Source: Gorillibacterium sp. sgz500922
Lineage (GTDB): Bacteria > Bacillota > Bacilli > Paenibacillales > NBRC-103111
DNA length: 64,000 bases
Direction: 5' to 3'
Assembly: GCF_051594785.1 (NCBI RefSeq)
Contig: NZ_JBPPGI010000006.1
Location: forward strand, 90,827-154,826
Positions 39,956 to 62,691 of the stretch are shown one piece after another. The translations under genes were made by a program, and so were the position numbers. The notes beneath the pieces were generated by a model. It had not been told where the DNA came from and did no database searches. It saw only the letters and a list, made by a program, of their open reading frames with translations. Numbering within the stretch: the stretch's first letter is position 1; the number at the start of each line of letters is the position of its first letter.

Positions 39956-39967
39956 AACAATCGCCGC

Positions 39968-43378: not shown

Positions 43379-43410
43379 GCGCTCTCCGTGCCTCCTCTTG
43401 CGGCTGTCTC

Positions 43411-44601: not shown

Positions 44602-44628
44602 GGGTTCCTCCTTCCCGGTTGCATCCCG

Positions 44629-46844: not shown

Positions 46845-46845
46845 G

Positions 46846-48048
46846 TCACGTCCCCCCTTCCTGGTAGCGGATGCGCCGGGCCATGCGGTAGACGCAGAGG
46901 AACGGCCGCAGCGGGAAGTAGAGAAAATGCGCCCGTTCGGGCAGCGGCAGCGTCCGGGCGTCCTCGTAGAAGGGATAGAGCAGGCTGAGCCGGAACAGCA
47001 GCTTGAAGGGCGGAGCCATCTGCGCGTACAGATGGCGGCGGTGATAGCGGTTCACGTCCTCCGGCAGCGGATAATCGTGCAGGTTCAGCATCCGCCGGAC
47101 GTAGAACATGGCTTCGTCGGCCAATTGCCCGGCCCGGCGCGTCCGCGACAGGCGGTCCAGGGCCGGAGACAGCGGGGTGCCGAACAGCGTCCGGGCAAGC
47201 GCCAGCGCCTGGCCGCCGATCGGCAGCAGGAAGTGCCGGCGCAGGAGCGGAATCAGCCGGCTCTCGTCGAGCCCCTGGCGGACGAGGCGGTCGATGTCGA
47301 GCAGCCACCTCAGCCGCGACCATCCGTGCCGGGCTCCGTGGGACGCGAGGAAGAGGAACAGGTCCTCCCGTCCCAGGTAATAGACCGGGTGTCCGGTGGC
47401 GAGCGGCGTCCGGCGCTTGCGGCGCCACAGCTCGGCGAAGGCCGGCTCGCTCGACGGGCCGGGATTCAGCCGCCAGTGGACCTCCAGCTTGATCCCCTTC
47501 TCTTGGTGATAAAAGGCGATATGGTGATGGCGCCATTTCCAGTCGCCGAGCACCGTCTCGATGTAGTCGTCCTTGACGTAGCCGAGGCGGGGAAGCAGCT
47601 CCTCCACCCGCTCCAGGCAGCCGATCCCGACGATCATATCCAGGTCGCAGGAGGTGCGCAGCGACAGCTCTCCGTACAGGTCGCGGGCGAGCACCGGTCC
47701 CTTCAGCATCAGCGAATCGATGCCCGCCCGGTCGAACTCGCGGCTCACCGCCTCCATCTCCGCCGCAAGCTGAAGCATCTTGAAGGCGTTCGTGCGGTAA
47801 TCCCGGCGCAGGCGATCCGTCGCTTCCGCGGGCAGGGCCGGAGCTCCCGGCTGCTGGAGCAGCCCGTGCAGGTACGGATACACCCGGTGATGCCGGGCCA
47901 GCTCTACGAGCTTCCCCGCATCTGCGCCGGCAAGCCGCTCTCTCTCTTCCTCCGTCCAGACCTTATCCGGTCCCGAGCGCAGCAGCAGGAGGAGAAGCTC
48001 CAGCTCCTCTGCAAGCGGCGCCGCTACCATCGGCTCGACATTCCTCAT
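46846..48048 (-). CDS. Nucleotidyltransferase family protein (NTP_transf_5/PF14907-like)
   Basis: N-terminal ...ELLLLLLRSG... segment and a central region typical of the 'uncharacterised nucleotidyltransferase' family. Confidence 0.55.
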   Translation of the reverse strand: MRNVEPMVAAPLAEELELLLLLLRSGPDKVWTEEERERLAGADAGKLVELARHHRVYPYLHGLLQQPGAPALPAEATDRLRRDYRTNAFKMLQLAAEMEAVSREFDRAGIDSLMLKGPVLARDLYGELSLRTSCDLDMIVGIGCLERVEELLPRLGYVKDDYIETVLGDWKWRHHHIAFYHQEKGIKLEVHWRLNPGPSSEPAFAELWRRKRRTPLATGHPVYYLGREDLFLFLASHGARHGWSRLRWLLDIDRLVRQGLDESRLIPLLRRHFLLPIGGQALALARTLFGTPLSPALDRLSRTRRAGQLADEAMFYVRRMLNLHDYPLPEDVNRYHRRHLYAQMAPPFKLLFRLSLLYPFYEDARTLPLPERAHFLYFPLRPFLCVYRMARRIRYQEGGT

Positions 48049-48112
48049 GGCGTTCCCCTTCTTCTCCTTGGTCCATTTGATTCCAAAGCGTTCTTCTTCC
48101 CGTGCCCGTGCT

Positions 48113-48718
48113 TCACAGCTCCGGCTCGCGGACGCTGCCCCGGAACACCGGCATGGTGGCGTGCTGGGGGTTCTGAATGCCCTCGTGCCGCAGCACCTTG
48201 CGGACGGTCATTCCGAGGATCTTCAGGTCGAGCCGGAAGCTCCGGTTCTCGACGTACCAGACGTCGAGGCGGAACCGCTCTTCCCAGGTGATGGCGTTGC
48301 GGCCGTTCACCTGCGCCCAGCCGGTGATCCCCGGCCGGACGTCGTGCCGCTTCGCCTGCTCCGGGGTGTACAGCTCGAGGTACTCGGGCAGCAGCGGCCG
48401 CGGCCCGACCAGGCTGAGCTCTCCCTTGACGACGTTCCAGAGCTGCAGCAGTTCATCCAGGCTGTACTTGCGCAGGAATTGGCCGAAGCGGGTCAAGCGG
48501 AGATGGTCCGGCAGAAGCTCGCCGAACTCGTCCCGGGCGTCGGTCATCGTCCGCAACTTATACAGCGTGAACGGCTTGCCGCCGAGTCCCGGCCGCACCT
48601 GGCGGAACAGGATCGGCGAGCCGAGCTTGATCCGTGCAAGCACCGCCAGCACGATCAGCAAAGGCAGCGCTGCGACAAACAGCGGCACCGCCACGAGGAG
48701 ATCAAACGACCGCTTCAT
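48113..48718 (-). CDS. Priming sugar phosphotransferase (bacterial sugar transferase, EpsL/WbaP C-terminal type)
   Basis: The start MKRSFDLLVAVPLFV follows GGAGGGGGAAG. PF02397 motifs (...PGLTGWAQV...). Confidence 0.8.
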   Translation of the reverse strand: MKRSFDLLVAVPLFVAALPLLIVLAVLARIKLGSPILFRQVRPGLGGKPFTLYKLRTMTDARDEFGELLPDHLRLTRFGQFLRKYSLDELLQLWNVVKGELSLVGPRPLLPEYLELYTPEQAKRHDVRPGITGWAQVNGRNAITWEERFRLDVWYVENRSFRLDLKILGMTVRKVLRHEGIQNPQHATMPVFRGSVREPEL

Positions 48719-49928
48719 AGGCTTCCCCCTCCAGCAGCAGGCAGAACTTGGCGAGCTCGCCCGCGTGGCGGTCACCGCCGCTCCGCAGGTTCTCCTCCAG
48801 CTCGGCGCGCAGCTCCGGGCGGTCGATCAGGCGGCGGATGCCGGCGGCGATTCCCTCCGCCGTCACCGGCACGACGAGCCCGGTCGCCTCGTCTTCGATC
48901 TGCTTGCGGAAGGACGGAATGTCCGTCACGACAACCGGACGGAACAGGGCCAGCGCTTCCTCCACCGCGATGCAGTGGGCCTCCGTCTTGGAGGGCTGCA
49001 CGTAGATGTCGCAGCGGCTCATGAACGGATAGGGATTGGCCTGCTCGCCGAGCAGCCGGAAACGCCCGGTCAGCTCCAGCTCCTCGGCGCGCTGGCGGAG
49101 CTCGTCGGCCAAGGGACCGGCTCCGACCAGGTTCCAGCGGACCGGATAGCCCTCGTCCCGGAGAATCCGGCAGGCATCCAGTGCGAGCCGGACACCCTTC
49201 TCGTCTCCGAGCCGGGCGACGGTGGCGACGGTGATCCCGGCGAACGAGACGTCGTCCGCCGCCGCTTCCGGCGGCAGCGGCTCCTGGGCCAGCTCGCGGA
49301 CGGCCGTCTCCGAGACGCGGTTGTGGATGACCCGAATCTGCCGGGAGAACTCGGGGAAATACGAGGTCAGCGAATCCCGCGCCGATTCGGCCACCGTGAC
49401 GATGTAATCGCACTTGCCGAAGCTCTTGCGCTCCATCTTCGGGCACGGCCAGCCTTGGCGCTCGCTGTAGCCGTAGTCCATGTGGTTGTAGAGAATCTTG
49501 CGGCCCGCCTTCACCTTCTCGGCCACGTAATAATTGCAGAAGAAGTCGAGGTAGCTGATCGCCGCATCGTAATAGGTCTTCTGCCGGGGAAGCGCCCGGC
49601 GGTAGACCGCCCAGCGCTTGCCCACGTTCTTGCCCTTGCCGGTCTTCCCGACGAGGGCGGCGGCGAGCTTGCCGTACAGCAGCCGGAAGCGGCGCTCCTT
49701 GAGGAGGAACGGCACCGCCTGCCCGACCGGCATCGAGAAGGAAGGAAACAGCGGCGGCAGCACGTTCACCTCCGGCGGAACCATCGGAAACAGCTTGCCG
49801 CTGTGGTCGAAGAGGAGCAGGTCCACCTCATAGCGGTCGTAGTCCAGCTCCGACAGGAGCGTGAGCAGGCTCTTCTCGGCGCCGCCAGTATGCAGGTATT
49901 GGGTGACAAAGAGCAGCCGCTTTTTCAT
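48702..49928 (-). CDS. GT4 glycosyltransferase, paralog 3
   Basis: The start MKKRLLFVTQYLHTGGAEKSLLTLL follows GGAAAGGAAG. The upstream 230 codons of the track ORF are artefactual. Confidence 0.75.
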   Translation of the reverse strand: MKKRLLFVTQYLHTGGAEKSLLTLLSELDYDRYEVDLLLFDHSGKLFPMVPPEVNVLPPLFPSFSMPVGQAVPFLLKERRFRLLYGKLAAALVGKTGKGKNVGKRWAVYRRALPRQKTYYDAAISYLDFFCNYYVAEKVKAGRKILYNHMDYGYSERQGWPCPKMERKSFGKCDYIVTVAESARDSLTSYFPEFSRQIRVIHNRVSETAVRELAQEPLPPEAAADDVSFAGITVATVARLGDEKGVRLALDACRILRDEGYPVRWNLVGAGPLADELRQRAEELELTGRFRLLGEQANPYPFMSRCDIYVQPSKTEAHCIAVEEALALFRPVVVTDIPSFRKQIEDEATGLVVPVTAEGIAAGIRRLIDRPELRAELEENLRSGGDRHAGELAKFCLLLEGEAYEAVV

Positions 49929-49957
49929 GGGTTCGCGTCTTCCTTTCCTTCCGTTGT

Positions 49958-50701
49958 TCACGCCCGCGCCTTCAGCAGCCGGCGCATGCGGGCCACTGCC
50001 GCCGGCCCGAGAAGCCGGGCGATCTGCCGCTTGAGCTCGCTGCGCCGCCGGACGCCGGCGGGCAGCCACGACTTGGCGAAGTGATGGATGGCGTAGCTGT
50101 TCTCCGAGAGGTAATCGGCCCCGTTGATATAATCGTAGGGACAGAAATACGTGCGCGGATAGAACACCGTGCCGTTGTCCAGCTCCTGGTACCGGCCGTT
50201 CGGCACGAAGCCGTGGGTCCGGGCATTTTCCGTAATCCGCTTCGTGTTGGTGGTCAGATCGAGCGTTCCGTCCGCCAGCACGAACGACCGGTCCTCGTAC
50301 TCGTCCAGCAGCTCCTTGATCCACGGATGGCCGGCGCGGGCTGCCATCAGGCCGGTGGGGACATGCTGCTCGTCCTCGAATCCGGAGAAGGCTTCGTGAA
50401 CGAGGAACCGGTCGAGCGGCTTCAGCACCTCGACGTCGGTATCCATGTAGATGCCGCCTTGGGTATACAGGGCATACAACCGAACGTAGTCGCTCACGAA
50501 TGCGTACTTGCCCTGCTCGTAAGCCTCCCGTACATACCGGTTGACCGAGAGATCGAAGGTATCCTCGTTCCACTCCACGAACCGGTATCCGGCGAGCCGC
50601 TTGGGCCAGCTTTCCTGGCACATGCGGATTTTCGCAGGCTTTTCCCCCCGCCCGAACCAGCAGGAATGGACGATTTTGGGGATGGCGTCGGCTTTTTTCA
50701 C
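49958..50701 (-). CDS. GT32-like glycosyltransferase (Gly_transf_sug, DXD motif YMDTD)
   Basis: GTG start after AAAGGAG; ...SDYVRLYALYTQGGIYMDTDVEV... Confidence 0.65.
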   Translation of the reverse strand: MKKADAIPKIVHSCWFGRGEKPAKIRMCQESWPKRLAGYRFVEWNEDTFDLSVNRYVREAYEQGKYAFVSDYVRLYALYTQGGIYMDTDVEVLKPLDRFLVHEAFSGFEDEQHVPTGLMAARAGHPWIKELLDEYEDRSFVLADGTLDLTTNTKRITENARTHGFVPNGRYQELDNGTVFYPRTYFCPYDYINGADYLSENSYAIHHFAKSWLPAGVRRRSELKRQIARLLGPAAVARMRRLLKARA

Positions 50702-50719
50702 GGGATGCTCCTTTCCGTA

Positions 50720-51796
50720 TCAGAACACGAGATAGCGGCTGTTGTATTCGAAGCCGCCGAACGAGATCAGGTTTTCGTACAGGAAAAACAGCAGATAGAA
50801 CATCAAGATCAGGTAATAGACCAGCTTCCGGTCTTTTTCGCGGAACAGCTTGACCACCCAGGGAATCAGAAGCAGCGGATACAGGCCGAAATAAATGGAA
50901 AAGCGGGCGATGATCCAGTTCTGCGTGGCGATCAGCATGACCAGGGCATTGAGGAGAGACAGATTGACGATCGGATCAAGCTCCGGCGCCAAGCTCTTCA
51001 GCCGCTGCCTGCCAAAGAAGGCGATGAGGACCGGCGCCGCCGCCACGACCACGCGGATGGCACTCGCTCCGCCTTCGGAAAAGGTTGAATAATGGCCGTA
51101 CGGGGTATCGGCGATCACCGTAAACAGCGCGCCCATGAACTGGTTGAAGCCCAGGACGATGAGCACGGCTCCGCATGCCATGAGCAGCGTCTTCTTGGTC
51201 CAGGCCGGTCCCCGCACCAGGAAGTAGACCGGCAGCAGCAGGAGCGCGCTGCGGTGAAAGGTCGAGGCGACCAGCACCACGAGGAAGAACCGTTTCCAAT
51301 CGCCGTTCAACATGTATTTGGTTCCGGCAAAAATGATCGCGGCCGCCAGATACTGCCGAATGCCGTTCATCGAGGTGGTGAACGCCCCGGAGGTGATAAA
51401 GACGTAGAGGCTCAGCTCATACATCGTCGAGTAGCGGAAGAGAATCCAGGCGATCAGCCCGCTGGTGGCGACGCCGGTCACCAGGATGAGCAGCTGGGGA
51501 TCGGAGCTCAGCTGCTTGAGCAAAAGCTGTAAAATGTTAAAGCCGAAGTCCTTGCTGTAGTCGATGGTCGCCCAGGAAAAGAAGCCGGTCTTGTACGAGT
51601 ACATGTACGTCGAGGTGTCGCCGATGTTGTTGCGCAAGCCGGCGACCAGCGCGAGCGAGACCGCCGCGATCAGCGCGGGCAGCGCGCTCGGCCGATACCG
51701 GACTCCCGCATCGGTGAGGGCCACCGGATGGGACAGCAGGCGGGCGTACAGGGAAGCGGCATAGACCAGGGCGAGGTTGAACAGCATGATCGTCAT
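50720..51796 (-). CDS. EpsG-family polysaccharide polymerase (Wzy-like membrane protein)
   Basis: The start MTIMLFNL follows AAGGGG; 10-11 TM helices with a large outward loop. Confidence 0.7.
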   Translation of the reverse strand: MTIMLFNLALVYAASLYARLLSHPVALTDAGVRYRPSALPALIAAVSLALVAGLRNNIGDTSTYMYSYKTGFFSWATIDYSKDFGFNILQLLLKQLSSDPQLLILVTGVATSGLIAWILFRYSTMYELSLYVFITSGAFTTSMNGIRQYLAAAIIFAGTKYMLNGDWKRFFLVVLVASTFHRSALLLLPVYFLVRGPAWTKKTLLMACGAVLIVLGFNQFMGALFTVIADTPYGHYSTFSEGGASAIRVVVAAAPVLIAFFGRQRLKSLAPELDPIVNLSLLNALVMLIATQNWIIARFSIYFGLYPLLLIPWVVKLFREKDRKLVYYLILMFYLLFFLYENLISFGGFEYNSRYLVF

Positions 51797-51801
51797 GGCG
51801 G

Positions 51802-52722
51802 TTACCCCTTTGCGGCGCTTTTCCCGGTTCTCAGCGTGGTGGAGCGGTTCGTCGCGTTCAGATAGAGATACAGGAGGAGCCCGGCGGGCAGCGCCAGCAC
51901 GGTATAACCGGGACAAGGCGATTCCCGCAGGAAGCGGCGGTTGCCGCTCATCAGGCTGCTGGAGACGTAATGGACCGTCTCCCGCATCCGCTCCTTCCAG
52001 GTCGGTGCGTAGGTCATCGCCGTCTTGCGGAAGAAGGCGAAGCCGCGCGGGTTGCGCCGGTATTGCTTAATGATGTTAAGGCTCGACCCGTCCTCCAGGT
52101 ATTCGACGACGCACAGCGGCTCGTTCAGGAGGAGGAGCGGGTGCAGCTGATCGATCAGCACGTATTTGTAGCTGAGCGGGCAGTATTTCTCTCCCTCGAA
52201 CAGCGGGTAAGGAGGCGTCCGGCGGGTCAGCTCCGAGCGGTAGACGAGCTTCTTGTCGCCGCGCACCTTGTGGACCCCGTACAGGTCGGTCAGGGTGGAA
52301 GCGGCGACGCCCTCCGGCAGCGGCGTGCCGATGACCGAGCCGTCCGGCGCGATGTCCAGGCCCGCGATGCCCGCCGCCCGGTCGCTGCCGTGCTCGCGCC
52401 AGAAGGAGACGATCGTCTCCACGGCCTTCTCCGGCAGGTAATCGTCGGAGTCGATGCAGACGTTGAGCTCGGTGTCCACCAGCTCGTAAGCGGTGTTGTG
52501 CGCGCCGTGCATGCCTTGGTTCGCCTGGTAATGGTAGCGGATCGGCACGGCGCCTTCGGCGATCCAGCCGCGGACCAGCTCCTCCGTGCCGTCCGTCGAA
52601 CCGTCGTCGACGATCAGCCAGAGGAAGTCCTTCGACGTCTGCCGCTTTAGGCTCTCGTAGCAGGCCGGCAGGATGTAGCCGCGGTTGTAAGTCGGGGTGA
52701 ACACGGTCAGCGTGGGCCGCAC
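51802..52722 (-). CDS. GT2 glycosyltransferase
   Basis: GTG start after AAAGGAGGAAG; LTVFTPTYNRG...DDGSTD. Confidence 0.75.
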   Translation of the reverse strand: MRPTLTVFTPTYNRGYILPACYESLKRQTSKDFLWLIVDDGSTDGTEELVRGWIAEGAVPIRYHYQANQGMHGAHNTAYELVDTELNVCIDSDDYLPEKAVETIVSFWREHGSDRAAGIAGLDIAPDGSVIGTPLPEGVAASTLTDLYGVHKVRGDKKLVYRSELTRRTPPYPLFEGEKYCPLSYKYVLIDQLHPLLLLNEPLCVVEYLEDGSSLNIIKQYRRNPRGFAFFRKTAMTYAPTWKERMRETVHYVSSSLMSGNRRFLRESPCPGYTVLALPAGLLLYLYLNATNRSTTLRTGKSAAKG

Positions 52723-52780
52723 AGATCTTCCTCCTTTTCTTCGCAAGGCCGGGCTTCCGGCCGAAACTCTCGCTCTTCGT

Positions 52781-53884
52781 TCACGCCTCGCGGAGCTGAT
52801 TCCGGTAGTAGTCGCTCAGCCACTCGGCCATCCTCCGCGCGTCATAGCCGCTCGCGGCGATGGCTTCCTGCGTGTCGGCATGCGCCAGCGACAAGCCGAG
52901 AATCCGCTCGGCCCAAGCCTCGGGCGGGGCCTTCAGCGACTCGAAGCCGACGAGGCCGGTCTTATCGACCTCGCGGGTGATCGTATCGGCCACCAGGCAG
53001 GCGAGGCCGGCGGCCTGCGCTTCCACCAGCACGACCGGCAGCCCCTCGAAGAGCGACGGAAACAGGAACAGGTCGAAGCCCTGCAGCAGATCGGGAATAT
53101 CGCCGCGAACACCGAGGAACCGGACCGAGTCGGCGAGGCCCAGGCGGTTCGCCTTCTCCTTCGCCTCCGCGAGAAGCTCCCCTTCCCCCGCCAGCACAAG
53201 CAGGGCGTCGGGCCGTCGGTCGAGCACCGCCCGGAAAATGTCGAGCAGGAACCGGTGGTTCTTCTGCTTGGTGAACCGGCCGATGTGGCCGATCACGAGC
53301 CGGTCGCCAATCCCGAGCTCCGCGCGGATGCGTTCCCGCCGGATGGGATCGAACCGGAAATCCTCGGCGTTGACGGCGTTGTTCAACACCGTCACCGGCC
53401 GCTTGCGGCCGAAGAGCCAGCGCCCGGCGTTCTCGGAGCAGGCGAAGTAATGCGTCGGCTGGTCGCGCATCACCGACCGGGCATAGAGCCGGAAGGGCAG
53501 CTTGTAGTCGAGCGCCAGATCGCTCAAATGGCTGTGCGCGATCCGGCAGGGCACGCCCGCGCGTTTCGCCGCGCGCAGCACGAAGCTGCTGTTCTCGTTG
53601 TTGTGCGCATGCACGATCCGGTAGTCGGGCTGCTCCGCGAAGAAGCGTTCCAGCCGGCGAAAATACTCGCGGTACTTGCCGGGCCGCAGCATCGGCATCC
53701 GGTAGATCCGGCCGCCGAGCGACTCGATCTCGCCGTCGTAGTGGCCGCGCTCCTCGCGGTGAACGAGGAAGTCGAACTGCAGCCGGGACCGGTCGAGCTG
53801 CCGGTAGTAGTTCATCAGCATCGTCTCCAGGCCGCCGCGGTTCATGATCGTCGCCACCTGGAGCACGCGCATCGGTTCTGCCAT
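52781..53884 (-). CDS. GT4 glycosyltransferase (EpsF-like)
   Basis: GT-B fold with an E-x7-E region. Confidence 0.75.
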   Translation of the reverse strand: MAEPMRVLQVATIMNRGGLETMLMNYYRQLDRSRLQFDFLVHREERGHYDGEIESLGGRIYRMPMLRPGKYREYFRRLERFFAEQPDYRIVHAHNNENSSFVLRAAKRAGVPCRIAHSHLSDLALDYKLPFRLYARSVMRDQPTHYFACSENAGRWLFGRKRPVTVLNNAVNAEDFRFDPIRRERIRAELGIGDRLVIGHIGRFTKQKNHRFLLDIFRAVLDRRPDALLVLAGEGELLAEAKEKANRLGLADSVRFLGVRGDIPDLLQGFDLFLFPSLFEGLPVVLVEAQAAGLACLVADTITREVDKTGLVGFESLKAPPEAWAERILGLSLAHADTQEAIAASGYDARRMAEWLSDYYRNQLREA

Positions 53885-53912
53885 GCCTAACGCCTCTTTT
53901 CCTTCATGACGT

Positions 53913-54971
53913 TTATCTCCGCCTCATCCGGTTTGCCGCGGCGAGCAGCGCGTAGAGGCCCGCCGTGAACCGGAGCTTGGCGCACCAGTAGAAGACCCGC
54001 CAGACGGGCGAGCCCTCCGGTTGGAAGCGCGCCAGCGCCGAGCGGAACCGCTCCTCCCGCAGCAGCTCCTGGAGCCGGCTCCGCTTCTCCGCCAAGGAGA
54101 GGCTCTCCCCCGCCGACAGGATGTTGAGCCCGAGTCCCAGAACGCTCAGCGCGATGCGGTTCTCCAGCGCTTCGCGGTAAATGCCGTCCAGCCGATGCTC
54201 GGCCAGAAACTGCTCCATGAGTCCGAAAAGCTGCAAAAACTGCCGGGTAAGCCGCGGATTGAACCCCGAGGTCAGGGATTCCGCGTTCACTCGCCAGTAA
54301 TGGTAGTATGGCGTATGTAAGAAGACGAAGCTGCGGGCCGCCTGCACAACCTGCAGGTTGAACAACGTATCCTCGTTGCTGCCGATCCGCTTGAGATCGG
54401 TAAATTCCGCTTCGGTCTCGCGGATCAGCTCCGCCCGGTACAGCTTGTTCCAGACGGTTCCCCATGCGTCGAGCAGCTCCGGACTGCCCTTCTCGTCGCC
54501 CACCGGGCCGACCAGCCGGCGCAGGATCCGCTCGGCCACCGCTTCGTCCCGGTAGACGGTACGGTCGGCCAGCCCGAAGTCCTTCTCCTTCGCATGGTCG
54601 CCGAATTCGCGGACGTACGAGCACATGACGATGTCGGCGCGGTCGGCGACCGCCGTTCGGTACAGGGCTTCGAACATGCCGGGATCGGCCCAATCGTCGG
54701 GATCGACGAAGCCGATGAAGGCGCCGCCCGCTTCCGCCAGGCCCGCATTGCGGGCGGCGGAGACGCCGGCGTTCGGCTGATCGAGCACCTTGAGCCGGCC
54801 GTCGCGGGAAGCCGCCTCGCGGAGGAGGGCCAGGCTGCCGTCCCGGGAGCCGTCGTTGACGGCGATGATCTCGATGTCCTTCAGGGTTTGGCCAAGCAGG
54901 CTATCCAGGCAGCGGCCGAGGTAGCGCTCCATGTTGTACACCGGAACGATGACGCTCACCAGCGGACCCAT
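53913..54971 (-). CDS. GT2 glycosyltransferase (paralog B of the gene at 45786-46844)
   Basis: MGPLVSVIVPVYNMERYLGRCLDSLLGQTL; near-identical N-terminal signature to paralog A. Confidence 0.8.
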   Translation of the reverse strand: MGPLVSVIVPVYNMERYLGRCLDSLLGQTLKDIEIIAVNDGSRDGSLALLREAASRDGRLKVLDQPNAGVSAARNAGLAEAGGAFIGFVDPDDWADPGMFEALYRTAVADRADIVMCSYVREFGDHAKEKDFGLADRTVYRDEAVAERILRRLVGPVGDEKGSPELLDAWGTVWNKLYRAELIRETEAEFTDLKRIGSNEDTLFNLQVVQAARSFVFLHTPYYHYWRVNAESLTSGFNPRLTRQFLQLFGLMEQFLAEHRLDGIYREALENRIALSVLGLGLNILSAGESLSLAEKRSRLQELLREERFRSALARFQPEGSPVWRVFYWCAKLRFTAGLYALLAAANRMRRR

Positions 54972-54972
54972 G

Positions 54973-56100
54973 CTACACCCAGGCGTACCGGGCGTAGATT
55001 TGGCCCAGCCGCTCCTTGACTTCCTGCACCGAATACGCCGCTACCCGGGCCAGGCTCTCCTCGCCCATCCGGCGGCGCAGCGCTTCGTCCGCCGCCAAAT
55101 CCTCCATGCGGCGGGCGAAGCCGTCCGCATCGTTCGCGTCGACGAGGTAGCCGTTCACGCCGTCCGCTACCAGCTCGTGGTGGCCGCGGTTCTCCGCCGC
55201 GATCACCGGCAGGCCGCTCGCCATCGCCTCCATGATGTTGACCGGCAGACCCTCGCGGAAGCTCGAGGCCACCGCGATATCGCAGGCCGGCAGCAGCTCG
55301 GCGACATCGTCGCGGTAGCCGAGGAAGTCCACGCGGTCCGCGATGCCAAGCCGCTCGGCCAGCTCCCGGCAGGCGGGCAGCAGCGGCCCCGAGCCGGCCA
55401 GCGCGAGCCGGACCGTAGGAGCTCCGGGCTCCTGCCGGACCTTGGAGAGCGCGTGCAGCAGCAGCTGCTGGTTCTTGTTGCGGTTGAATTCGGCGGCATA
55501 GAAGAACAGCAGCCCTTCTTCCGCGAGGCCGAGCGCCCGCCGCCGCCCCGCCTTCTCATCCGAACCGAGCGGCCGGAAGCGGTCGAGCTGAACGCCGACG
55601 CCCGGCACATGGGCGATCTCCGCCGCCTGGAAGTGCCGCCGGAGAGCCAGCCGGTAATCCTCCGAATTGATCGTGATCAGGCAGTCGGTCACCCGTGCGA
55701 GCATTTTCTCCACCGGATAATAGAGCAGCCAGTTGACCAGCGGGGCACCCTTGCAGAAGTGAAAGCCGTGGGCCGTGTAGAGGACTTTCGTTCCCCGCTT
55801 GCGGGCCTTCCAGCCGGCCAGCCGGGCGAGCATGCCGCCCATCGGCGTATGGCAGTGAATGACATCGTAAGCGCCCCGTTCCATCACCGCCGACAGCTCG
55901 CGGTACGCCTTCACGTTCCCCGCCTTAAGCGGCGAGCGCTCGAAGGGAATGTCGAATTTCTGGTCGACGTGGGGCAACGAACGCCCTCCCTTGGCCGCAA
56001 CGTGAACCTCCCAGCCCTGCTCCTTGAACCATTCCAGGTAGGGAAGATGAAACTTCTCTACATGCGTATCGACCGTTGCCACAAACAATATGGCCGGCAC
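54973..56100 (-). CDS. GT4 glycosyltransferase (EpsD-like)
   Basis: The start is taken at the second GTG, which has a GAGGAGG RBS; the first GTG at 56109 abuts the RBS. Confidence 0.7.
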   Translation of the reverse strand: MPAILFVATVDTHVEKFHLPYLEWFKEQGWEVHVAAKGGRSLPHVDQKFDIPFERSPLKAGNVKAYRELSAVMERGAYDVIHCHTPMGGMLARLAGWKARKRGTKVLYTAHGFHFCKGAPLVNWLLYYPVEKMLARVTDCLITINSEDYRLALRRHFQAAEIAHVPGVGVQLDRFRPLGSDEKAGRRRALGLAEEGLLFFYAAEFNRNKNQQLLLHALSKVRQEPGAPTVRLALAGSGPLLPACRELAERLGIADRVDFLGYRDDVAELLPACDIAVASSFREGLPVNIMEAMASGLPVIAAENRGHHELVADGVNGYLVDANDADGFARRMEDLAADEALRRRMGEESLARVAAYSVQEVKERLGQIYARYAWV

Positions 56101-56121
56101 CGCCTTCACCTCCTCTTCGAA

Positions 56122-57957
56122 TCAGCGGGACGACACGACGGCAAGCTCCGCTTCGCCGGTATCCGGCGCGCGGCGGCTGGCGATCCGCAGCAGGGCTTCG
56201 CGCAGCTCCGTCTTTTCCATGCCCGCATAGCCCTTCAGCAGCTCCTGAATTTCCTTCATGCGCAGCTCCGCCGTCTTGCCGATGTAGATCTTCGGATAGA
56301 CCTGCTCCTCGTGGACCTCGTCCTTGCCGAGCAGCTCCTCGAACAGCTTCTCCCCGGGCCGGATGCCCGAGTATTCGATCCCGATGTCCTCGACGGAATT
56401 GCCGGAGAGGCGGATCAGGTTGACGGCGAGATCGGTGATCTTCACGGGATCGCCCATGTCGAGCACGAAGATTTCGCCGCCGCGGGCGAGCGCGCCCGCT
56501 TGAATGACGAGCCGCGAGGCTTCGGGAATCGTCATGAAATAGCGGATCATCTCCGGATGGGTGACCGTCACCGGGCCGCCCTTCTCGATCTGCTTCTTGA
56601 ACAGCGGGATGACGCTGCCCCGGCTGCCCAAGACATTGCCGAAGCGGACCGCGACGAATTTGGTGAAGCTGCGCTGGTCGAGGTCCTGGATGATCATCTC
56701 GGCGAGCCGCTTGGCCGCGCCCATGACGCTCGTCGGGTTGACCGCTTTGTCCGTGGAGATCATCACGAACGTCCGGACCCCGGAAGCGCTGGCGGCGTTC
56801 GCCGCGTTCAGGGTGCCGAGGACGTTGTTCTTGACCGCTTCCTCCGGGTTGCGTTCCATCAAGGGAACGTGCTTGTGCGCCGCCGCATGGTAAACGACGT
56901 CGGGGCGGTAGGTCTTCATCACCGCCATCATCTTGGCGGCGTCCTGAAGATCGGCGATTTCCGGCACGAATTTGATGCCGGAATCCTTGAACTGCTCCCT
57001 CAGCTCCATCTCGATGGAATAGATGCTGTTCTCTCCATGCCCGAGCAGCACCAGCAGCTGGGGCTTGAACCGGGACACCTGGCGGCAGATCTCCGAACCG
57101 ATGGAGCCGCCCGCACCGGTGACCAGGACGATTTTGCCGGTGACGGACTCGGAGATCTTATCCATGTCCATCTCCACTGGCTCGCGACCGAGCAGGTCCT
57201 CCACCTGCACGTCGCGGACCTGGTTCACCGAAACCTTGCCGGAGACAATGTCCTCGATCATCGGCAGAATCTGCGTCTTGGCCGCCGTCTTGGCGCATTC
57301 CTCGTAGATGCGCTGAATTTCCCGACGCCTCAGCGAGGGAATGGCGATGAGGATCGTATGGATGCGCATCTCCCGGGTGATCCGCTCGATGTCGCCGAGA
57401 CCGCCGACGACCGGAACGCCGAGGATGTCGAGGTTCCGCTTGTTCGGATTGTCGTCGACGAAGGCCACCGGCATCAGGTCCGTCTCCCCGCTGTTCAGGA
57501 GCTGGCGGACGATCATCGTGCCGCCCGATCCGGCGCCGACGATCAGCGTGCGCTTCTTCGTATTCGCCTTGCGGCCCGCCGTATGGAGCAGCCGCCAGGA
57601 AAGCCGCGTACCGCCGATGAGCAGCACATGCAGCATCCAGGTGATGGCGAGCATTCGGAAGTAAACGGTGCCCATCATCGCCGCCTGGACGACGACGGTG
57701 GCGGCGATCGAGAGGCTGACCGCCTTCAGGATGGCGGCGAGCTCGCTCACGCTGGCGTATTCCCAGGCTTTTTTGTACAGCTTATAGCGGAAGGCGAAGA
57801 AGTGGTGGCTGACGAGAAGCGTCAGCGAGGTCAGAATGAGCGGCGTCTCATTGACGGCCATGCCGGCGTGCGTCAGGTACCGGCTGAAGAAGATTGCCGT
57901 AAGGACCACAAAGGAATCCGTAAAAAACAAAAAAGACAGCCGTTGTCGATAGGTCAC
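56122..57957 (-). CDS. Membrane-bound UDP-sugar 4,6-dehydratase/epimerase (CapD/EpsC/PglF-like polysaccharide biosynthesis protein)
   Basis: GTG start after GGGAGGA; four N-terminal TM helices, then two Rossmann domains (GAGGSIGSE). Confidence 0.8.
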   Translation of the reverse strand: MTYRQRLSFLFFTDSFVVLTAIFFSRYLTHAGMAVNETPLILTSLTLLVSHHFFAFRYKLYKKAWEYASVSELAAILKAVSLSIAATVVVQAAMMGTVYFRMLAITWMLHVLLIGGTRLSWRLLHTAGRKANTKKRTLIVGAGSGGTMIVRQLLNSGETDLMPVAFVDDNPNKRNLDILGVPVVGGLGDIERITREMRIHTILIAIPSLRRREIQRIYEECAKTAAKTQILPMIEDIVSGKVSVNQVRDVQVEDLLGREPVEMDMDKISESVTGKIVLVTGAGGSIGSEICRQVSRFKPQLLVLLGHGENSIYSIEMELREQFKDSGIKFVPEIADLQDAAKMMAVMKTYRPDVVYHAAAHKHVPLMERNPEEAVKNNVLGTLNAANAASASGVRTFVMISTDKAVNPTSVMGAAKRLAEMIIQDLDQRSFTKFVAVRFGNVLGSRGSVIPLFKKQIEKGGPVTVTHPEMIRYFMTIPEASRLVIQAGALARGGEIFVLDMGDPVKITDLAVNLIRLSGNSVEDIGIEYSGIRPGEKLFEELLGKDEVHEEQVYPKIYIGKTAELRMKEIQELLKGYAGMEKTELREALLRIASRRAPDTGEAELAVVSSR

Positions 57958-58013
57958 GTTCTCATCCTCCCGTGCTCATGTCAATGTAGCCGCAAGCGTT
58001 CCGCTGCGGCTTA

Positions 58014-58544
58014 AACCCCTTCGAAGCCGATCCCAGGCGGCGCCCGGCGAAAGACATCAGGCTCGCGTAAACGCAGAGTGCGCCCGAAATGACGAAGATC
58101 GGACGCACTTGCGGTTCGCTTGCTTACCTGTGCGGTTTCCAGGGAGGAATCCGCACAAGTAAAGAAACGAAACCGCAGGCTTCGCCGCCGCTTGAGGAGC
58201 AGGCCGCGCGGGCGGGCCGCGCGCAAGGCGCGCGGAGCCGGCAATCGCGGCAGTCGCCTTAAGCGATGGGCGGCGAACATTCGGTTTCAATCGTAATCCG
58301 GGGCATCCAACCCCGCCTCACGCCACACCCTCGACGACCCGCGTCTAAGGTCCTGCGACCCACAGCATGACCGAGTGCCTCCATTGATATCGGCCAGGAG
58401 ACATCGCCGCAGCTTGGGTTCATCCGGCTAATGACCGGAAATCCGTCCACTGTTGTTCGCTATGTAAATCATTATCGTTCTTAATATAGAACAGCGAGGC
58501 AAAAGGAAAGCCCTCCGTATCGTCGGCGGGAGAGCCGGGCGAGG
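58014..58544 (-). ncRNA. About 530 nt of structured non-coding spacer between the BY-kinase and capD-like genes (candidate EAR-type anti-termination RNA or internal promoter)
   Basis: No credible ORF. Hairpins visible include TGTGCGGattcctccctggaaaCCGCACA. The position is equivalent to the epsB-epsC spacer that carries the EAR element in Bacillus. Confidence 0.35.
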
Positions 58545-59204
58545 CTACTTCTCGTTGAGCACCGTACCGAGCAGCGTGGCCCCGGCGAACTCCAGGGTCA
58601 TCTTGGCGTTCAGCGCCGCATCTTCCTTGGTCCGGCCCTGTTCCAGGACCAACAACACGGCGTCGCTGCAATGCGCCAAAGACTTGACCTCGAAGGCTTC
58701 CAGCACCGAGGGAGCATCGATGAGGACCATATCGTAGTGGCTGCCCAGCGTGTCCATGATGCCGGTCAGGACTCCATCGTCCAGGAGATCGTTGGCTCCG
58801 AAGCCGTAGGTACCGGCCGGCATGACGTCCAGCTCGCCGATCTCGGTCGGATGAACCGTATCCTTCAGCTCCTTGCGGCCGGACAGGACATCGGACAATC
58901 CGGGCTGTCTCTCCATGCCGAGCAGCTTGGTGATTCCCGGACGGCGGACATTCGCGTCCACCACCAGCACCTTGCTGCCCTTCACCGCCATCGAGGAAGC
59001 CAGGTTCATGACCAGCGTGGTCTTCCCTTCCCCGCCCTCGGGCGAAGTGACAAGAAGCGACTTCTTCTTCTGGCTTTCAAACAGCAGGCGAATATTGGCG
59101 CGGATGCTGCGGAATTGCTCGGAAGCGCGCGCGGCGGGCTGCAGGTAGCTGATCAGACTCCGCCGGGCGGGGAGACTGGATGCGACCGCTTCGTTAAGAT
59201 TCAA
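58545..59204 (-). CDS. BY-kinase (tyrosine-protein kinase, CapB/EpsB/YwqD-like ATPase)
   Basis: Walker A (SPEGGEGKTT), Walker A' and Walker B. TTG start after GAGGAGGGAG; overlaps the modulator gene by 11 nt. Confidence 0.8.
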   Translation of the reverse strand: MNLNEAVASSLPARRSLISYLQPAARASEQFRSIRANIRLLFESQKKKSLLVTSPEGGEGKTTLVMNLASSMAVKGSKVLVVDANVRRPGITKLLGMERQPGLSDVLSGRKELKDTVHPTEIGELDVMPAGTYGFGANDLLDDGVLTGIMDTLGSHYDMVLIDAPSVLEAFEVKSLAHCSDAVLLVLEQGRTKEDAALNAKMTLEFAGATLLGTVLNEK

Positions 59205-59907
59205 CGCTCTCCCTCCTCGTGAGTTGAATTCGCTGATGGGTCTTGGCGCGGAACTTCACCTTTCGAATGCGGGACACTTGCCCGAGCACCGGCAGGCCAA
59301 GCACTTCCTTCGCCCGCTTCTCCGAGCGGATCGCTTCGTCGAGGGTATCGCGGAGGAAGGCGGCTCCGATGCCCAGCACCAAGCCGGCGATGAGGCCGAT
59401 GAGGATCATCCGGTTTTGCTCCGGCGGATTGATCGGCTGTGGCGAACCGTCCTTCTTGGCTTCGGATAAAATGGTCACGTCGCTGAAGTTCAGGAGCGTG
59501 CCGATGGTCGCCTTGTATTGCTTCACGGTGGAGTTGGCGATAGCCGCGGCGAGCGGCTGGCTGCGGTCGGTAACGGTGACCAGCACCACCTGGGTGTTGT
59601 CGACGCTGGAGACCGAAATCTGGCTCCGCAGAGCGGAGACGGAGCGGTCGAGCGAGAGTTCATCCGCTACCTTTTGCAGGACGACGGGCTCCTTGAGAAC
59701 CACCTTGAGCGTATTGATGAAATCGGTATTCGAATGGATGATGATGCGGGCCGTCGCCTGATACAGCGGTGCATGCGGCCTGTTGGCATAGTAGGCGCCA
59801 AGCCCGGTGCCCAACAGAGTAACGAGCGACAGGATCAGCCAGCGCCTGCGCAGGGCGAGCAGAAGGTCACGGATGTTGATCTCTCGGGGGATACGCATAT
59901 TGTCCAT
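59194..59907 (-). CDS. Polysaccharide chain-length determinant / BY-kinase transmembrane modulator (Wzz/CapA/EpsA-like)
   Basis: The start MDNMRIPREI follows CAGGAGAAT; two TM helices flank a periplasmic domain; first gene of the EPS operon. Confidence 0.75.
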   Translation of the reverse strand: MDNMRIPREINIRDLLLALRRRWLILSLVTLLGTGLGAYYANRPHAPLYQATARIIIHSNTDFINTLKVVLKEPVVLQKVADELSLDRSVSALRSQISVSSVDNTQVVLVTVTDRSQPLAAAIANSTVKQYKATIGTLLNFSDVTILSEAKKDGSPQPINPPEQNRMILIGLIAGLVLGIGAAFLRDTLDEAIRSEKRAKEVLGLPVLGQVSRIRKVKFRAKTHQRIQLTRRESVES

Positions 59908-59939
59908 GGGGATTCTCCTGATCTTTATAATGAACTCGT

Positions 59940-59975
59940 TACTCATTATAGTTCTTAATAGCGAACATGTCAAAC
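59940..59975 (-). promoter_or_regulatory. EPS operon promoter: TTGACA, 17-nt spacer, TATAAT, with the inverted repeat GTTC-N8-GAAC filling the spacer
   Basis: A consensus sigma-A hexamer pair read on the minus strand, about 30 nt upstream of the first EPS gene. The inverted repeat resembles Bacillus SinR operators (GTTCTYT half-sites). Confidence 0.6.
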
Positions 59976-60006: not shown

Positions 60007-60345
60007 TCAGCCGCCGATTTCGTCCTCGTCCTCTTTTTCCTGCCGCTGCATCTGGTACAACCGGACGAAATCCTCCTTGCGCATTCCATCCTGAATGGCG
60101 GTGTAAATCAGCGTTTTCCATTCCTCATCCAGCGGATCGGCGCCCAGGTACTCTTCCCCGAGCAAAAATTCCAAATGGGTATCCAGCGATTCGGCCAGCT
60201 TGGAGAGCATGAGCAGGGACGGGTTGTTTTGCAGCTTGCGCTCGATATGGCTGAGGTAGGACTTGGAGATATCGGCCATCTCGGCGAGCTCGGTGATGGT
60301 CAGCCCCTTCTGCTCCCGCAGGTATTTAATTCGATCTCCGATCAT
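60007..60345 (-). CDS. XRE-family transcriptional regulator resembling SinR (HTH plus C-terminal multimerisation helix)
   Basis: MIGDRIKYLREQKGLTITELAEMADISKSYLSHIERKLQNNPS aligns by eye with the B. subtilis SinR N-terminus. RBS AAGGAGAAAG. The start lies 20 nt inside the 3' end of the ABC exporter gene. Confidence 0.7.
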   Translation of the reverse strand: MIGDRIKYLREQKGLTITELAEMADISKSYLSHIERKLQNNPSLLMLSKLAESLDTHLEFLLGEEYLGADPLDEEWKTLIYTAIQDGMRKEDFVRLYQMQRQEKEDEDEIGG

Positions 60346-62158
60346 AGCTTTCTCCTTCGTCGGATTGGATAAAATCGTTCCCTCTTTGCATCCCGAGCAG
60401 CCGGCGGAACATGCCCCGCCTCTCCCGGGCCAAGCTGGAATACTCGCCGCACTGCACGACCCGGCCCTGATCGAGGACCACCACTTGATCCGCGTCGCGG
60501 ATCGTGGTCAGCCGGTGGGCGATGACGATCAGCGTGATTCGGCCTCTCAGCCGGAACAGCGCATCCTGAATCTTGGCTTCGTTCTCGCCGTCGAGGGCGC
60601 TCGTCGCCTCGTCGAGCACGAGAACCGCAGGGTCCCGGAGGAGGGCTCTCGCGAGCACCAGCCGCTGGCGCTCGCCGCCGGACAGCCGCACCCCGCGGTC
60701 GCCCAGCACGGTGTCGAGCCCCATCGGCAGCCTGGCGACAAAGTCGGAGGCGGCGGCCAGCTCCAGAACCTCCCAGATCCGCTCGTCGCTTGCCTCCGGC
60801 TGAACGAGGAGCAGGTTGTCGCGGATGCTGGCGTTGAACAGGAACGGGTCCTGCGACACGTAGCTGACCGTCTGCCGGAAGCGGCGGATCGCAGCGCCCT
60901 CCAGCGGCGTCCCGTCCACCAGAATCCGCCCGTCCTCGGGCACGATGAGGCCCATGATGAGGTCGGCCAGCGTGCTCTTGCCGGCGCCCGAGCGTCCGAC
61001 GACCGCCGTCATCCGGTTGGCCGGAATCGTCAGGGTGATCCCCGCGAGGGCATAGGGGCCTTCGCCCCGCTCGTAGCGGTAATTCACGTCCTCGAGTTCG
61101 ATCGCCTCGGTAAGCCGCAGCGGTTCGCCTTCCAAGGCTCCGATCCGTTCCGCCGACAGCCGGCATTCCTCCTGCAGCCCGCGCAGGCTGCGGAACGCCG
61201 GTAGGCTTGCCGACAGCTGCTCCAGGTTCATCTGGATGTTCATGAACCGCGGCCACAGCCGGGAGAAGATCGCCACGACGATGATCAGCTGCCCTGCCGG
61301 CGTCTTCAGCCACGCCACGGAAGCGAAGAGGAAGAACGCGATAAGCCCGGTGGAAGCGAGCTTATAGACCATCTGAGAGTTGGAGCGCAGCTTAACGTAG
61401 CCGTCCTGCTCCTTCTGCAGCTTGCCGGACTCCTGCCGCATCCACTCGAGGCGCGAGCCTTCCAGCCGGTTGCTCTTAATGTCCTTAATGCCGTTGATCT
61501 GCTCGGTGATGCCGGCGAGGTAGCCCTGCGACATCTCCGTCGTCTGCTTGCCGAGCGCGAGCGCCTTGCCGAGCGAGCGCTTGGAGAGGAACGCGAGCGC
61601 GAGCCCGCAGACCACGACGAAGGCCGTGACCTGCCAGGACAGCCAGAGCGCAATCGCCACCTGAAGCGCCGTGAACAGCACGTTGGTTACAAGCGAGAGG
61701 AACAGGTTGATGCCCGCTCCGACCCGTGCCAGCTCGGCGGTCATCGTGTTGACCAGATCGGAGCGCCGCCGCTTCAGGAAGAAAGCCCAGTCGGCCATCA
61801 AGAGATCGCGGTAGACGGTGAAGCGCAGGTGATGCACGAACCCCTGATGGATGCGCGCGTTCTGAATCGTGAACCTTCGCTGAAGCAGGTTCTGGACCAA
61901 GGCCAGCATCACAAAAATTCCCAACACCGTCAGCAGGCCGGCCATCCCGGACAGGCCCTGAAGAAACGAGAACGCCTGGAACAGGGGATGGCTCGAAGCC
62001 GAATAGCTGATGATTCCGCTGATGCCCAGCATGGGAATTAATAGGATCAGACCGATGCCGTCCAGCAAGCTGATCGCGAGCATGCCGGCCATGTTGGCGT
62101 ACAGGACCGAACCGGAATAAGCCGCCAGTTGTTTGACATAATGCCGAATTTCCTTCAT
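60326..62158 (-). CDS. Lasso peptide ABC exporter (D protein; fused TMD-NBD, type I exporter)
   Basis: The start MKEIRHYVKQL follows GGGAGGAAG and overlaps the B2 stop (ATGA). Six TM helices, then Walker A GRSGAGKST, the signature LSGGERQR and Walker B. The 80 codons upstream in the track ORF are artefact. Confidence 0.8.
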   Translation of the reverse strand: MKEIRHYVKQLAAYSGSVLYANMAGMLAISLLDGIGLILLIPMLGISGIISYSASSHPLFQAFSFLQGLSGMAGLLTVLGIFVMLALVQNLLQRRFTIQNARIHQGFVHHLRFTVYRDLLMADWAFFLKRRRSDLVNTMTAELARVGAGINLFLSLVTNVLFTALQVAIALWLSWQVTAFVVVCGLALAFLSKRSLGKALALGKQTTEMSQGYLAGITEQINGIKDIKSNRLEGSRLEWMRQESGKLQKEQDGYVKLRSNSQMVYKLASTGLIAFFLFASVAWLKTPAGQLIIVVAIFSRLWPRFMNIQMNLEQLSASLPAFRSLRGLQEECRLSAERIGALEGEPLRLTEAIELEDVNYRYERGEGPYALAGITLTIPANRMTAVVGRSGAGKSTLADLIMGLIVPEDGRILVDGTPLEGAAIRRFRQTVSYVSQDPFLFNASIRDNLLLVQPEASDERIWEVLELAAASDFVARLPMGLDTVLGDRGVRLSGGERQRLVLARALLRDPAVLVLDEATSALDGENEAKIQDALFRLRGRITLIVIAHRLTTIRDADQVVVLDQGRVVQCGEYSSLARERRGMFRRLLGMQRGNDFIQSDEGESYDRRSN

Positions 62159-62691
62159 CGTGCTTCCTCCCGAAGCCTGCCGCGAACCGCCGGGTCCAGT
62201 CGGGACGGCTTGGCGAATTTGCCGACCGTGGTAAACCTTCTCATTTCCTCCGCGCCGGTGACGTACCGGTCGCCGCTGCGCAGCCAGGCATGCGCCGCCA
62301 GGCCGCCCGTTTCGTCCCGCCCGGTTCCCAGGTACAGCGTGCAGCCGATGCCCCGCCGCTCCAGCATCCTCAGGCCGGCCACGGCGCGGGTGAGGCACAT
62401 GCTGCTCCAGGGCGTATGCCGGCTGGCGGCCGCAATCGCGTCGGCGACCCGGCCGACGATGGCCCGCTCCGCCTCCGGCGCCCGCTCCGAGGGCGTCTCG
62501 CGCTCCCGCTCGCCGAGCGACGGAGCGAGGCGCGCGAACGGCCGGAGCAGCGCCAGCCGGGCCCGGCCGAGCTCGAAGAACGCCTCGGCGAGGAGCCGCC
62601 GGTTTCCGGCGGGCAGCGCGAGGAGCACCCGCGCCGGACGCAGCCGGCCTTTCAGCCTGCCGACGAGCCGTGTCCGCGGCGCCCCGCTCAT
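62155..62691 (-). CDS. Lasso peptide biosynthesis B2 protein (transglutaminase-like cysteine protease, leader peptidase)
   Basis: The start MSGAPRTRLVGRL overlaps the B1 stop (ATGA). N-terminal ...RRLLAEAFFELGRARLALLRPFARLA... The catalytic Cys (SMCLTRAVAG) ... His (AAHAWL) arrangement of PF13471. Confidence 0.75.
   Translation of the reverse strand: MSGAPRTRLVGRLKGRLRPARVLLALPAGNRRLLAEAFFELGRARLALLRPFARLAPSLGERERETPSERAPEAERAIVGRVADAIAAASRHTPWSSMCLTRAVAGLRMLERRGIGCTLYLGTGRDETGGLAAHAWLRSGDRYVTGAEEMRRFTTVGKFAKPSRLDPAVRGRLREEAR

Follow-up and report, generated by a model that had tools for sequence, protein, structure and literature searches.

An EAR element flanked by a predicted SinR-type operator and a conserved hairpin in the polysaccharide operon of a Gorillibacterium

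The DNA analyzed here, hereafter the window, is a 64-kb stretch of Gorillibacterium sp. sgz500922 (contig NZ_JBPPGI010000006.1, positions 90,827 to 154,826) that carries a polysaccharide (eps/capsule) operon on its minus strand, and our subject is the long non-coding spacer within this operon and the EAR (eps-associated RNA) element that the spacer contains. All coordinates are those of the window, and the sense strand of the operon is its minus strand. The spacer occupies 57958-58544(-), or 587 nucleotides (nt), between a gene for a BY-kinase ATPase (epsB-like; 58545-59204, minus; Pfam AAA_31, ParA, and CbiA), which encodes 219 amino acids (aa) both here and in the independent gene calls of the related loci L081 and L083, and a capD/epsC homolog (Polysacc_synt_2; 56122-57957, minus; PF02719, E = 1e-122), which starts at the GTG at 57957-57955 behind a GGAGG ribosome-binding site (RBS) at 57970-57966 and is followed in the operon by glycosyltransferase genes. 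A sequence-only reading of this DNA had proposed a structured, non-coding gap of 530 nt between a BY-kinase gene and a capD-like gene. Pfam agrees with both gene assignments, and the gap is real, but its length is 587 nt, and the lower bound first given for it, 58014, is the end of a spurious plus-strand open reading frame (ORF) rather than the edge of the capD-like gene. All other junctions in the operon had been put at 30 nt or less; in the chain of minus-strand ORFs from 59907 to ~34264, taken with longest-ORF starts, they range from overlap to ~205 nt, with some of 34, 64, 98, and ~205 nt, although the spacer is by far the largest.

The spacer has no plausible coding content, as had been suggested, with none of its eight ORFs (34-89 aa) matching Pfam even at E<=10. 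Its sense-strand RNA is also structured, as claimed: the predicted fold has an energy of -271 kcal/mol compared with -238 +/- 6.7 kcal/mol for dinucleotide shuffles (z = -4.9), and 0 of 100 shuffles folded as well. When the whole window was scanned with Rfam 15, an EAR (Rfam epsC, RF01735) was found at 58300-58409 on the minus strand with a cmscan score of 105.5 bits (E = 2.9e-17) against a gathering score of 42. The match spans model positions 1-117 of 117, takes up 110 of the 587 spacer nt, and represents the sole Rfam family to reach its gathering score in the window; matches of other families in the spacer or over the hairpin that follows the EAR were sub-threshold noise (miRNA models and the like), and no other family was found there in 14 related loci. 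The candidate EAR-like RNA of the sequence-only reading is thus confirmed over the full model, while the accession under which it was to be sought, RF01494, has to be replaced by RF01735.

To compare orthologous spacers, we scanned genomes with the capD-like protein and obtained 80 loci, one per species, the nearest being from Gorillibacterium timonense (86% identity) and Gorillibacterium sp. CAU 1737 (82%). With the window EAR as nhmmer query, an EAR homolog was found upstream of the capD/epsC homolog in 76 of these 80 Bacillales loci, and two of the four loci without one have almost no upstream sequence. Rfam confirmed the EAR in 12 related loci at 100-115 bits. A BY-kinase gene lies upstream in 60 of the 76 EAR loci, as it does in the window, and in loci with this arrangement the whole spacer measures 224-698 nt (median 390), the window spacer being the second longest of 61 measured. 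RNAalifold recovered the Rfam helices (P1-P5) from an alignment of 77 sequences, with compensatory changes in 13 of 32 pairs. The family to which Gorillibacterium belongs, Paenibacillaceae, falls inside the Bacillales range of the EAR (the order is now Caryophanales at NCBI). Lack of conservation or covariation in orthologous spacers and decay of a former gene had been named as the findings that would speak against an EAR; since the element is conserved, its helices covary across orthologous spacers, and the spacer bears no sign of a decayed gene, neither objection holds.

The identity, position, strand, conservation, and covariation of the EAR are therefore established, and the spacer adds an unambiguous member to a known RNA family, located where one would expect it, a finding that is ordinary in itself. 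We are highly confident that this is a genuine EAR and that it forms part of the eps/capsule operon mRNA made from a promoter at 59973-59945 (described below). For genome annotation, the gain is that a previously unexplained gap becomes a known regulatory RNA.

Weinberg et al. 2010 stated that epsC, RF01735, and the element named EAR by Winkler's group are one and the same, reported its antitermination activity, which probably involves direct contact with the elongation complex, and mentioned a predicted pseudoknot that is absent from the Rfam model. In B. subtilis, the EAR sits between epsB and epsC (PMC7858274; PMC10653937), is needed to transcribe the whole eps operon (PMC7858274; PMC10653937; PMC8191782), and causes read-through of distal intrinsic as well as heterologous terminators (PMC7858274; PMC8191782), although its mode of action on polymerase is still open (PMC8632103). 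The window EAR resembles the B. subtilis element (Irnov & Winkler 2010; Weinberg et al. 2010) in its full-length sequence and structure match, its position between BY-kinase gene and epsC homolog, its strand, its long polysaccharide operon, and its bacterial order. It differs in having a GC-rich Gorillibacterium host and, compared with the usual EAR setting, in its 587-nt spacer, a ~110-nt GC-rich insertion before the usual downstream hairpin, and a lack of evident intrinsic terminators inside the operon. From its family membership we infer that the window EAR is active in antitermination. Homology with the B. subtilis element suggests that the RNA, once folded, would affect in cis the very polymerase that transcribed it, making this enzyme resistant to termination and pausing signals across the next ~24 kb of glycosyltransferase, polymerase, and export genes. 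The put RNA of phage HK022 offers a parallel as a cis-acting, structured nascent RNA thought to modify its own polymerase (PMC8191782) and a factor-independent processive antiterminator. However, put is a phage element without sequence or structure kinship to the EAR, and, in contrast with put, the EAR's need for cofactors is not settled (PMC8191782; PMC8632103).

The promoter of the operon, P1, lies at 59945-59973 on the minus strand (TTGACA-17 nt-TATAAT, 12/12 matches), upstream of a Wzz/chain-length-determinant gene (epsA-like; 59194-59907, minus; Pfam Wzz). The true start of wzz is the ATG at 59907, with the RBS AGGAG at 59919-59915, whereas the TTG at 59973 that opens the longest ORF falls inside the promoter; the resulting protein of 237 aa has the same length as in the independent gene calls of L081 and L083. 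The 17-nt spacer of P1 consists of one base plus a 16-nt palindromic box, GTTCGCTATTAAGAAC (59966-59951), and a second box, GTTCATTATAAAGATC (59935-59920), covers the start region ahead of the RBS. Most of the 80 loci have this TTGACA-N1-box-TAnAAT design before their eps operon (86 promoter-type sites). No sigma-70-like promoter was found by scanning the spacer, nor on either strand of the 20 kb from 38100 to 58000, where shuffled sequence would be expected to yield 2.6. These results, together with the 12/12 promoter before wzz, fit a single long transcription unit, with the whole 25-kb polysaccharide operon probably transcribed together from a promoter under SinR-type repression.

Directly upstream of P1 and in the same orientation is a gene for a 112-aa repressor of the SinR/SlrR family (60007-60345, minus). 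Residues 1-108 of its product match B. subtilis SinR (1b0n, 3zkc) with a phmmer E-value of 2.2e-20; Pfam assigns HTH_3, and among NCBIfam models SlrR scores best (E = 2.2e-22), though it does not reach the family cut-off. The recognition helix reads SKSYLSHIER compared with AKSYLSSIER in SinR, and this protein is likely the cognate repressor of the boxes. A SinR-like gene is present in the upstream flank of 24 of the 80 loci, in the same or in divergent orientation. The repressor ORF and the ABC-transporter ORF before it (60326-62398) share 20 nt, and the two genes may hence be co-transcribed.

A third box lies inside the operon, just before the EAR. It occupies 58477-58492, reads GTTCTATATTAAGAAC on the minus strand, and comprises two GTTCTYT-like half-sites in a 7+2+7 layout. 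It is preceded by a T-rich tract, CTTTCCTTTT (58501-58510, minus), a degenerate copy of the T-run of relatives (TTTTTTT at this position in L001 and L002), and an extra inverted half-site, AGCGAAC (reverse complement GTTCGCT), is found 15 nt downstream of the box at 58455-58461 (minus). The surrounding half-site block is ATAGCGAACAA in the window and L002 and ATAACGAACAA in L001, and stands at an equal distance in L001, L002, and L081; the promoter box at 59966-59951 likewise has GTTCGCT as its left half. The block conserved in Gorillibacterium, as aligned from L001 and L002, runs T-run, 8 nt, GTTCTnTATTnAGAAC, ~15 nt, half-site block. Searching the 64 kb for GTTCTTTATAAAGAAC with <=3 mismatches gave three matches where 0.05 were expected, and all three (58477-58492, 59951-59966, and 59920-59935) are in eps regulatory DNA.

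The arrangement is not peculiar to Gorillibacterium. Counted across many genera, 71 of 77 loci have the 16-mer box, with the consensus GTTCTTTATWAAGAAC, <=120 nt upstream of the EAR, usually at a distance of 11-40 nt. In a position table of these 71 loci, GTTC was invariant (71/71), changes in the right half were not compensated in the left half, and T dominated positions -17 to -10 from the box without a mirrored A-run downstream. An invariant GTTC, uncompensated right-half changes, and a one-sided T flank indicate a DNA site rather than an RNA stem. We had also considered the box as an RNA hairpin, which was rejected on the invariant GTTC and the uncompensated changes, and the T-run as the tail of an intrinsic terminator, which was rejected because it abutted a stable hairpin in only 5 of 89 cases (median z = -0.1). 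Over all loci, the 277 box sites showed two main designs, promoter type and T-type, with about a third fitting neither; the T-type (T-run, ~9 nt, box) occurs 60-125 nt past the promoter and again just before the EAR. Boxes in ~460 kb of downstream coding DNA were rare, each with 3 mismatches.

The SinR operators of the eps and tapA promoters in B. subtilis have the same half-site and 7+2+7 inverted-repeat layout as the window box, and the highest-affinity inverted-repeat duplex for SinR is GTTCTCTAAAGAGAAC (PMC3163267). The window further shares with them the association with an eps operon, and encodes a full-length SinR homolog nearby. In contrast with B. subtilis, one window box lies ~1.4 kb inside the operon, just before the EAR and after a sense-strand T-tract, and the repressor gene is co-oriented upstream of the operon, whereas B. 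subtilis slrR is divergent. On these grounds, we read the spacer box as a putative intra-operon operator of SinR type. A precedent for SinR-family proteins acting within an operon is provided by the B. subtilis fla/che operon, inside which bound SinR-SlrR attenuates elongation and lowers downstream transcripts (bioRxiv 10.1101/2025.01.06.631544). However, the fla/che sites are composites of SinR and SlrR half-sites in coding sequence, while the window site is a predicted palindrome in a non-coding spacer and, unlike them, is marked by a T-tract at -17 to -10. Our literature search found the exact 16-mer box in no paper, and the papers that it found on SinR and the EAR did not contain the term 'EAR element'.

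The promoter boxes at 59966-59951 and 59935-59920 lie within and just after a 12/12 promoter. For the T-tract and spacer box, we considered whether they could mark an internal promoter that starts a separate EAR-epsC transcript, leaving wzz and the BY-kinase gene as a unit of their own. Loci without upstream wzz and BY-kinase genes do have a box-embedded promoter 130-270 nt before the EAR (L028, 3625-3653, for example), and in the window a GATAAT follows the spacer box at the same offset as TATAAT in P1. However, the box has no recognizable promoter around it: the spacer scan was negative for sigma-70-like sites, CCTCGC stands at the -35 position, L001 and L002 do not keep the GATAAT, and the 71-locus table has neither a -10 signature (+16 to +21) nor a -35 signature (-7 to -2). 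Furthermore, the box ends 1-3 nt before the EAR in three loci, too close for a -10 element plus start site to fit in between. We consider an internal promoter unlikely.

On the other side of the EAR, the spacer contains a long hairpin, UUUCGUUUCUUUACUUGUGCGG...CCGCACAGGUAAGCAAGCGAA (58110-58177, minus), which is kept in L001, L002, and L081 and lies outside the RF01735 model; no Rfam family covered it in 14 related loci either. A homologous hairpin of >=12 base pairs (median 24) is present in 72 of 77 EAR-to-gene spacers and begins a median of 8 nt after the EAR, with recognizably homologous arms (AAAGTTCTTAACTATAnGG...CCnTATAGTTAAGAACTTT). When 65 of these hairpins were aligned with MAFFT, changes on both sides were observed in 23 of 24 pairs, and double-change cells numbered 267 compared with 69 +/- 10 in shuffles, a signal that collapsed when the partners were shifted. 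When the hairpins were called on Watson-Crick pairs only, G.T mismatches exceeded A.C mismatches by 109 to 30 (p about 1e-11), which indicates that the pairing occurs in the sense-strand RNA. At least six U residues were found in the 10 nt after the hairpin in 24 of 65 loci, while Gorillibacterium sequences have 0-2. The window hairpin lacks the U-tract of an intrinsic terminator: it runs into GCGAACCGCA, and the first 10 nt after it contain 0 U. In AT-rich relatives, hairpin and U-rich tail look like a first terminator for the EAR-modified polymerase to pass; in Gorillibacterium, where no such tail is present, the hairpin may serve in pausing, folding, or stability.

The apex of the hairpin is a box-like palindrome in at least L015 (3770-3785) and L056 (3779-3794), and a box-like site occurs in the same post-EAR region of L061 (3939-3954) and L077 (3777-3792). 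The usual apex, GGTCTTT...AAAGACC, is one base per half off the box. The hairpin DNA might also be a repressor site, or have evolved from one.

Because a terminator-like hairpin with at least six U residues in the following 10 nt is present in 24 of 65 loci, and because epsC was initially presented as a riboswitch candidate (Weinberg et al. 2010), the epsC motif could in principle be a metabolite-sensing riboswitch, with the post-EAR hairpin as its terminator-type expression platform and local attenuation in place of processive antitermination. The same paper, however, gives the motif antitermination activity, probably by elongation-complex contact, and later reviews report read-through of distal and heterologous terminators (PMC7858274; PMC8191782). 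Moreover, the window and the other Gorillibacterium sequences lack any U-tail after the hairpin, and in no locus do EAR and hairpin overlap in a way that would permit an alternative fold. A riboswitch is thus quite improbable, and more so than an internal promoter.

As judged from sequence comparison, the EAR is the middle part of a three-part module, consisting of T-tract with operator, EAR, and hairpin, in the Gorillibacterium lineage and in most Bacillales loci examined. It is possible, although we hold this only tentatively, that the EAR is just the center of a conserved control module that extends beyond the Rfam model and joins a roadblock operator, the EAR, and the hairpin. In such a module, the T/U tract and operator would let a SinR/SlrR-like repressor hold or release polymerase before the EAR is made, providing a second lock beyond the two promoter operators. 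The U/T tract, which has no hairpin and sits at a fixed 8-10 nt before the operator, would decide whether the EAR gets transcribed, with the stalled polymerase resting on a weak rU:dA hybrid. The 24-bp hairpin ~8 nt past the EAR could be needed for EAR loading or could be the first barrier that is passed. If this is correct, SinR-family biofilm repressors would act on eps operons across Bacillales not just at initiation but also at elongation, linking the SinR biofilm switch to transcription-elongation control, and the hairpin would offer a new handle on the EAR's unsolved mechanism. Constructs for structural and mechanistic work on the EAR would then need to include operator and hairpin if these flanks are functional, and both deserve specialist attention.

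Several observations weigh against the inferred antitermination and the proposed module. The window T-tract is degenerate, and the window box (GTTCTAT-AT-TAAGAAC) matches the family consensus (GTTCTTT-AT-AAAGAAC) at 6/7 positions per half, two mismatches in all. Loci of the B. cereus group have no EAR-proximal box, and the consulted text of a B. subtilis chromatin immunoprecipitation sequencing preprint mentions no SinR peaks other than those before slrR/eps and tapA. Because a hairpin finder selected the hairpins, the figure of 91% paired is inflated; their covariation and fixed position are independent of this selection for pairing. Scanning the operon for terminators gave none that was convincing (18 weak sites compared with 13.2 +/- 3.2 expected), so in this GC-rich genome the signals that an EAR would override may be Rho-dependent. 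Lastly, a roadblock is only one way in which the operator could work, since looping to the promoter operators or bending of the DNA by the T-tract would fit equally well.

Some loci keep only part of the module. L067, L068, L075, L045, L054, and L074 (B. cereus group and relatives) have no T-type box <=300 nt before the EAR; L067, L068, L075, L054, and L074 keep a promoter-type box ~1.5-1.7 kb upstream, which was not seen in L045, and the post-EAR hairpin is kept in L067, L068, L075, L045, and L054 but not in L074. Conversely, the Paenibacillus loci L035 (3805-3958) and L064 (3592-3990) carry boxes of both the promoter type and the T-type, while neither nhmmer nor Rfam recognizes an EAR in them, and L064 also keeps a hairpin of the post-EAR type just before the RBS. 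The flanking elements can thus persist without the EAR.

The sequence-only reading also drew attention to a 7-codon upstream ORF (MLWVAGP) with a GGAGG RBS, at 58345-58368 (minus). Both exist, but they are part of the conserved EAR structure rather than a gene: the frame lies inside helices P2/P3, and its ATG sits in the near-invariant EAR sequence CAUGCUGUGGGU. In favor of a translated leader peptide that controls the downstream genes, the frame has an ATG, a GGAGG 10 nt before it, and an in-frame stop. Nevertheless, the GGAGG (58382-58378) would be base-paired as the 3' arm of helix P1, 10 of 76 loci have another codon in place of the ATG (ATA in nine and GCG in one), and the equivalent frame is 4-43 codons long across the 76 EARs because the P3 loop varies in length, with insertions and deletions there placing the stop. 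The frame is a by-product of the EAR's conserved sequence, and there is very little chance that it encodes a leader peptide.

Just as hard to credit is that the spacer is a decayed pseudogene, such as the missing CpsB phosphatase that had been raised earlier or a small ORF of Bacillaceae: the spacer is unusually long, and a conserved ORF of 45-60 aa does lie between EAR and epsC in at least 24 Bacillaceae loci, but none of the eight spacer ORFs resembles a Pfam family, tblastn of the small ORF against the window and eight Paenibacillaceae loci gave chance-level matches with none in the corresponding part of the spacer, and the non-conserved parts (GC-rich hairpins, tandem repeats) are wholly different between close relatives, which points to filler rather than decay of one gene.

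The length of the spacer is mostly lineage-specific filler (~250 nt remaining) around the conserved core. A ~110-nt insertion between the EAR and the post-EAR hairpin (roughly 58178-58292), which forms a GC-rich hairpin at 58183-58275 (minus), is absent from L001, L002, and L081 (90% identity) and present in L083 (99% identity), and no second copy that would suggest a repeat family was found in the window or the loci. The remainder is a variable GC-rich tail (57958-58109, minus) that ends in the RBS of the capD/epsC homolog and runs up to its GTG. Apart from its last ~30 nt, around the RBS, this tail cannot be aligned with L001 or L002, and L081, a metagenomic Gorillibacterium relative with a spacer of ~948 nt, has ~450 nt of other sequence in its place.

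In ~24 Bacillaceae loci (L015, L021, L029, and L066 among them), the small ORF follows the post-EAR hairpin and precedes the epsC homolog, and an RBS-like AAGGAG often stands a short distance past the hairpin; the ORF product reads M..IDxYPKSIKKAVRYIKQDAxKEQLEEIKKLIxYAIxRR. Neither Pfam nor NCBIfam has a family for this ORF, the window lacks it, and its presence accounts for the class of EAR-to-gene spacers of ~240-285 nt. The spacer of L081/L082 seems to collect lineage-specific repeats, having ~48-nt GC-rich tandem repeats after the BY-kinase stop and upstream of the T-tract (1950-2140) and three 25-nt repeats (ACACAATCAGGCAGTCAGCAAGAGC) before the epsC homolog (about 2700-2790).

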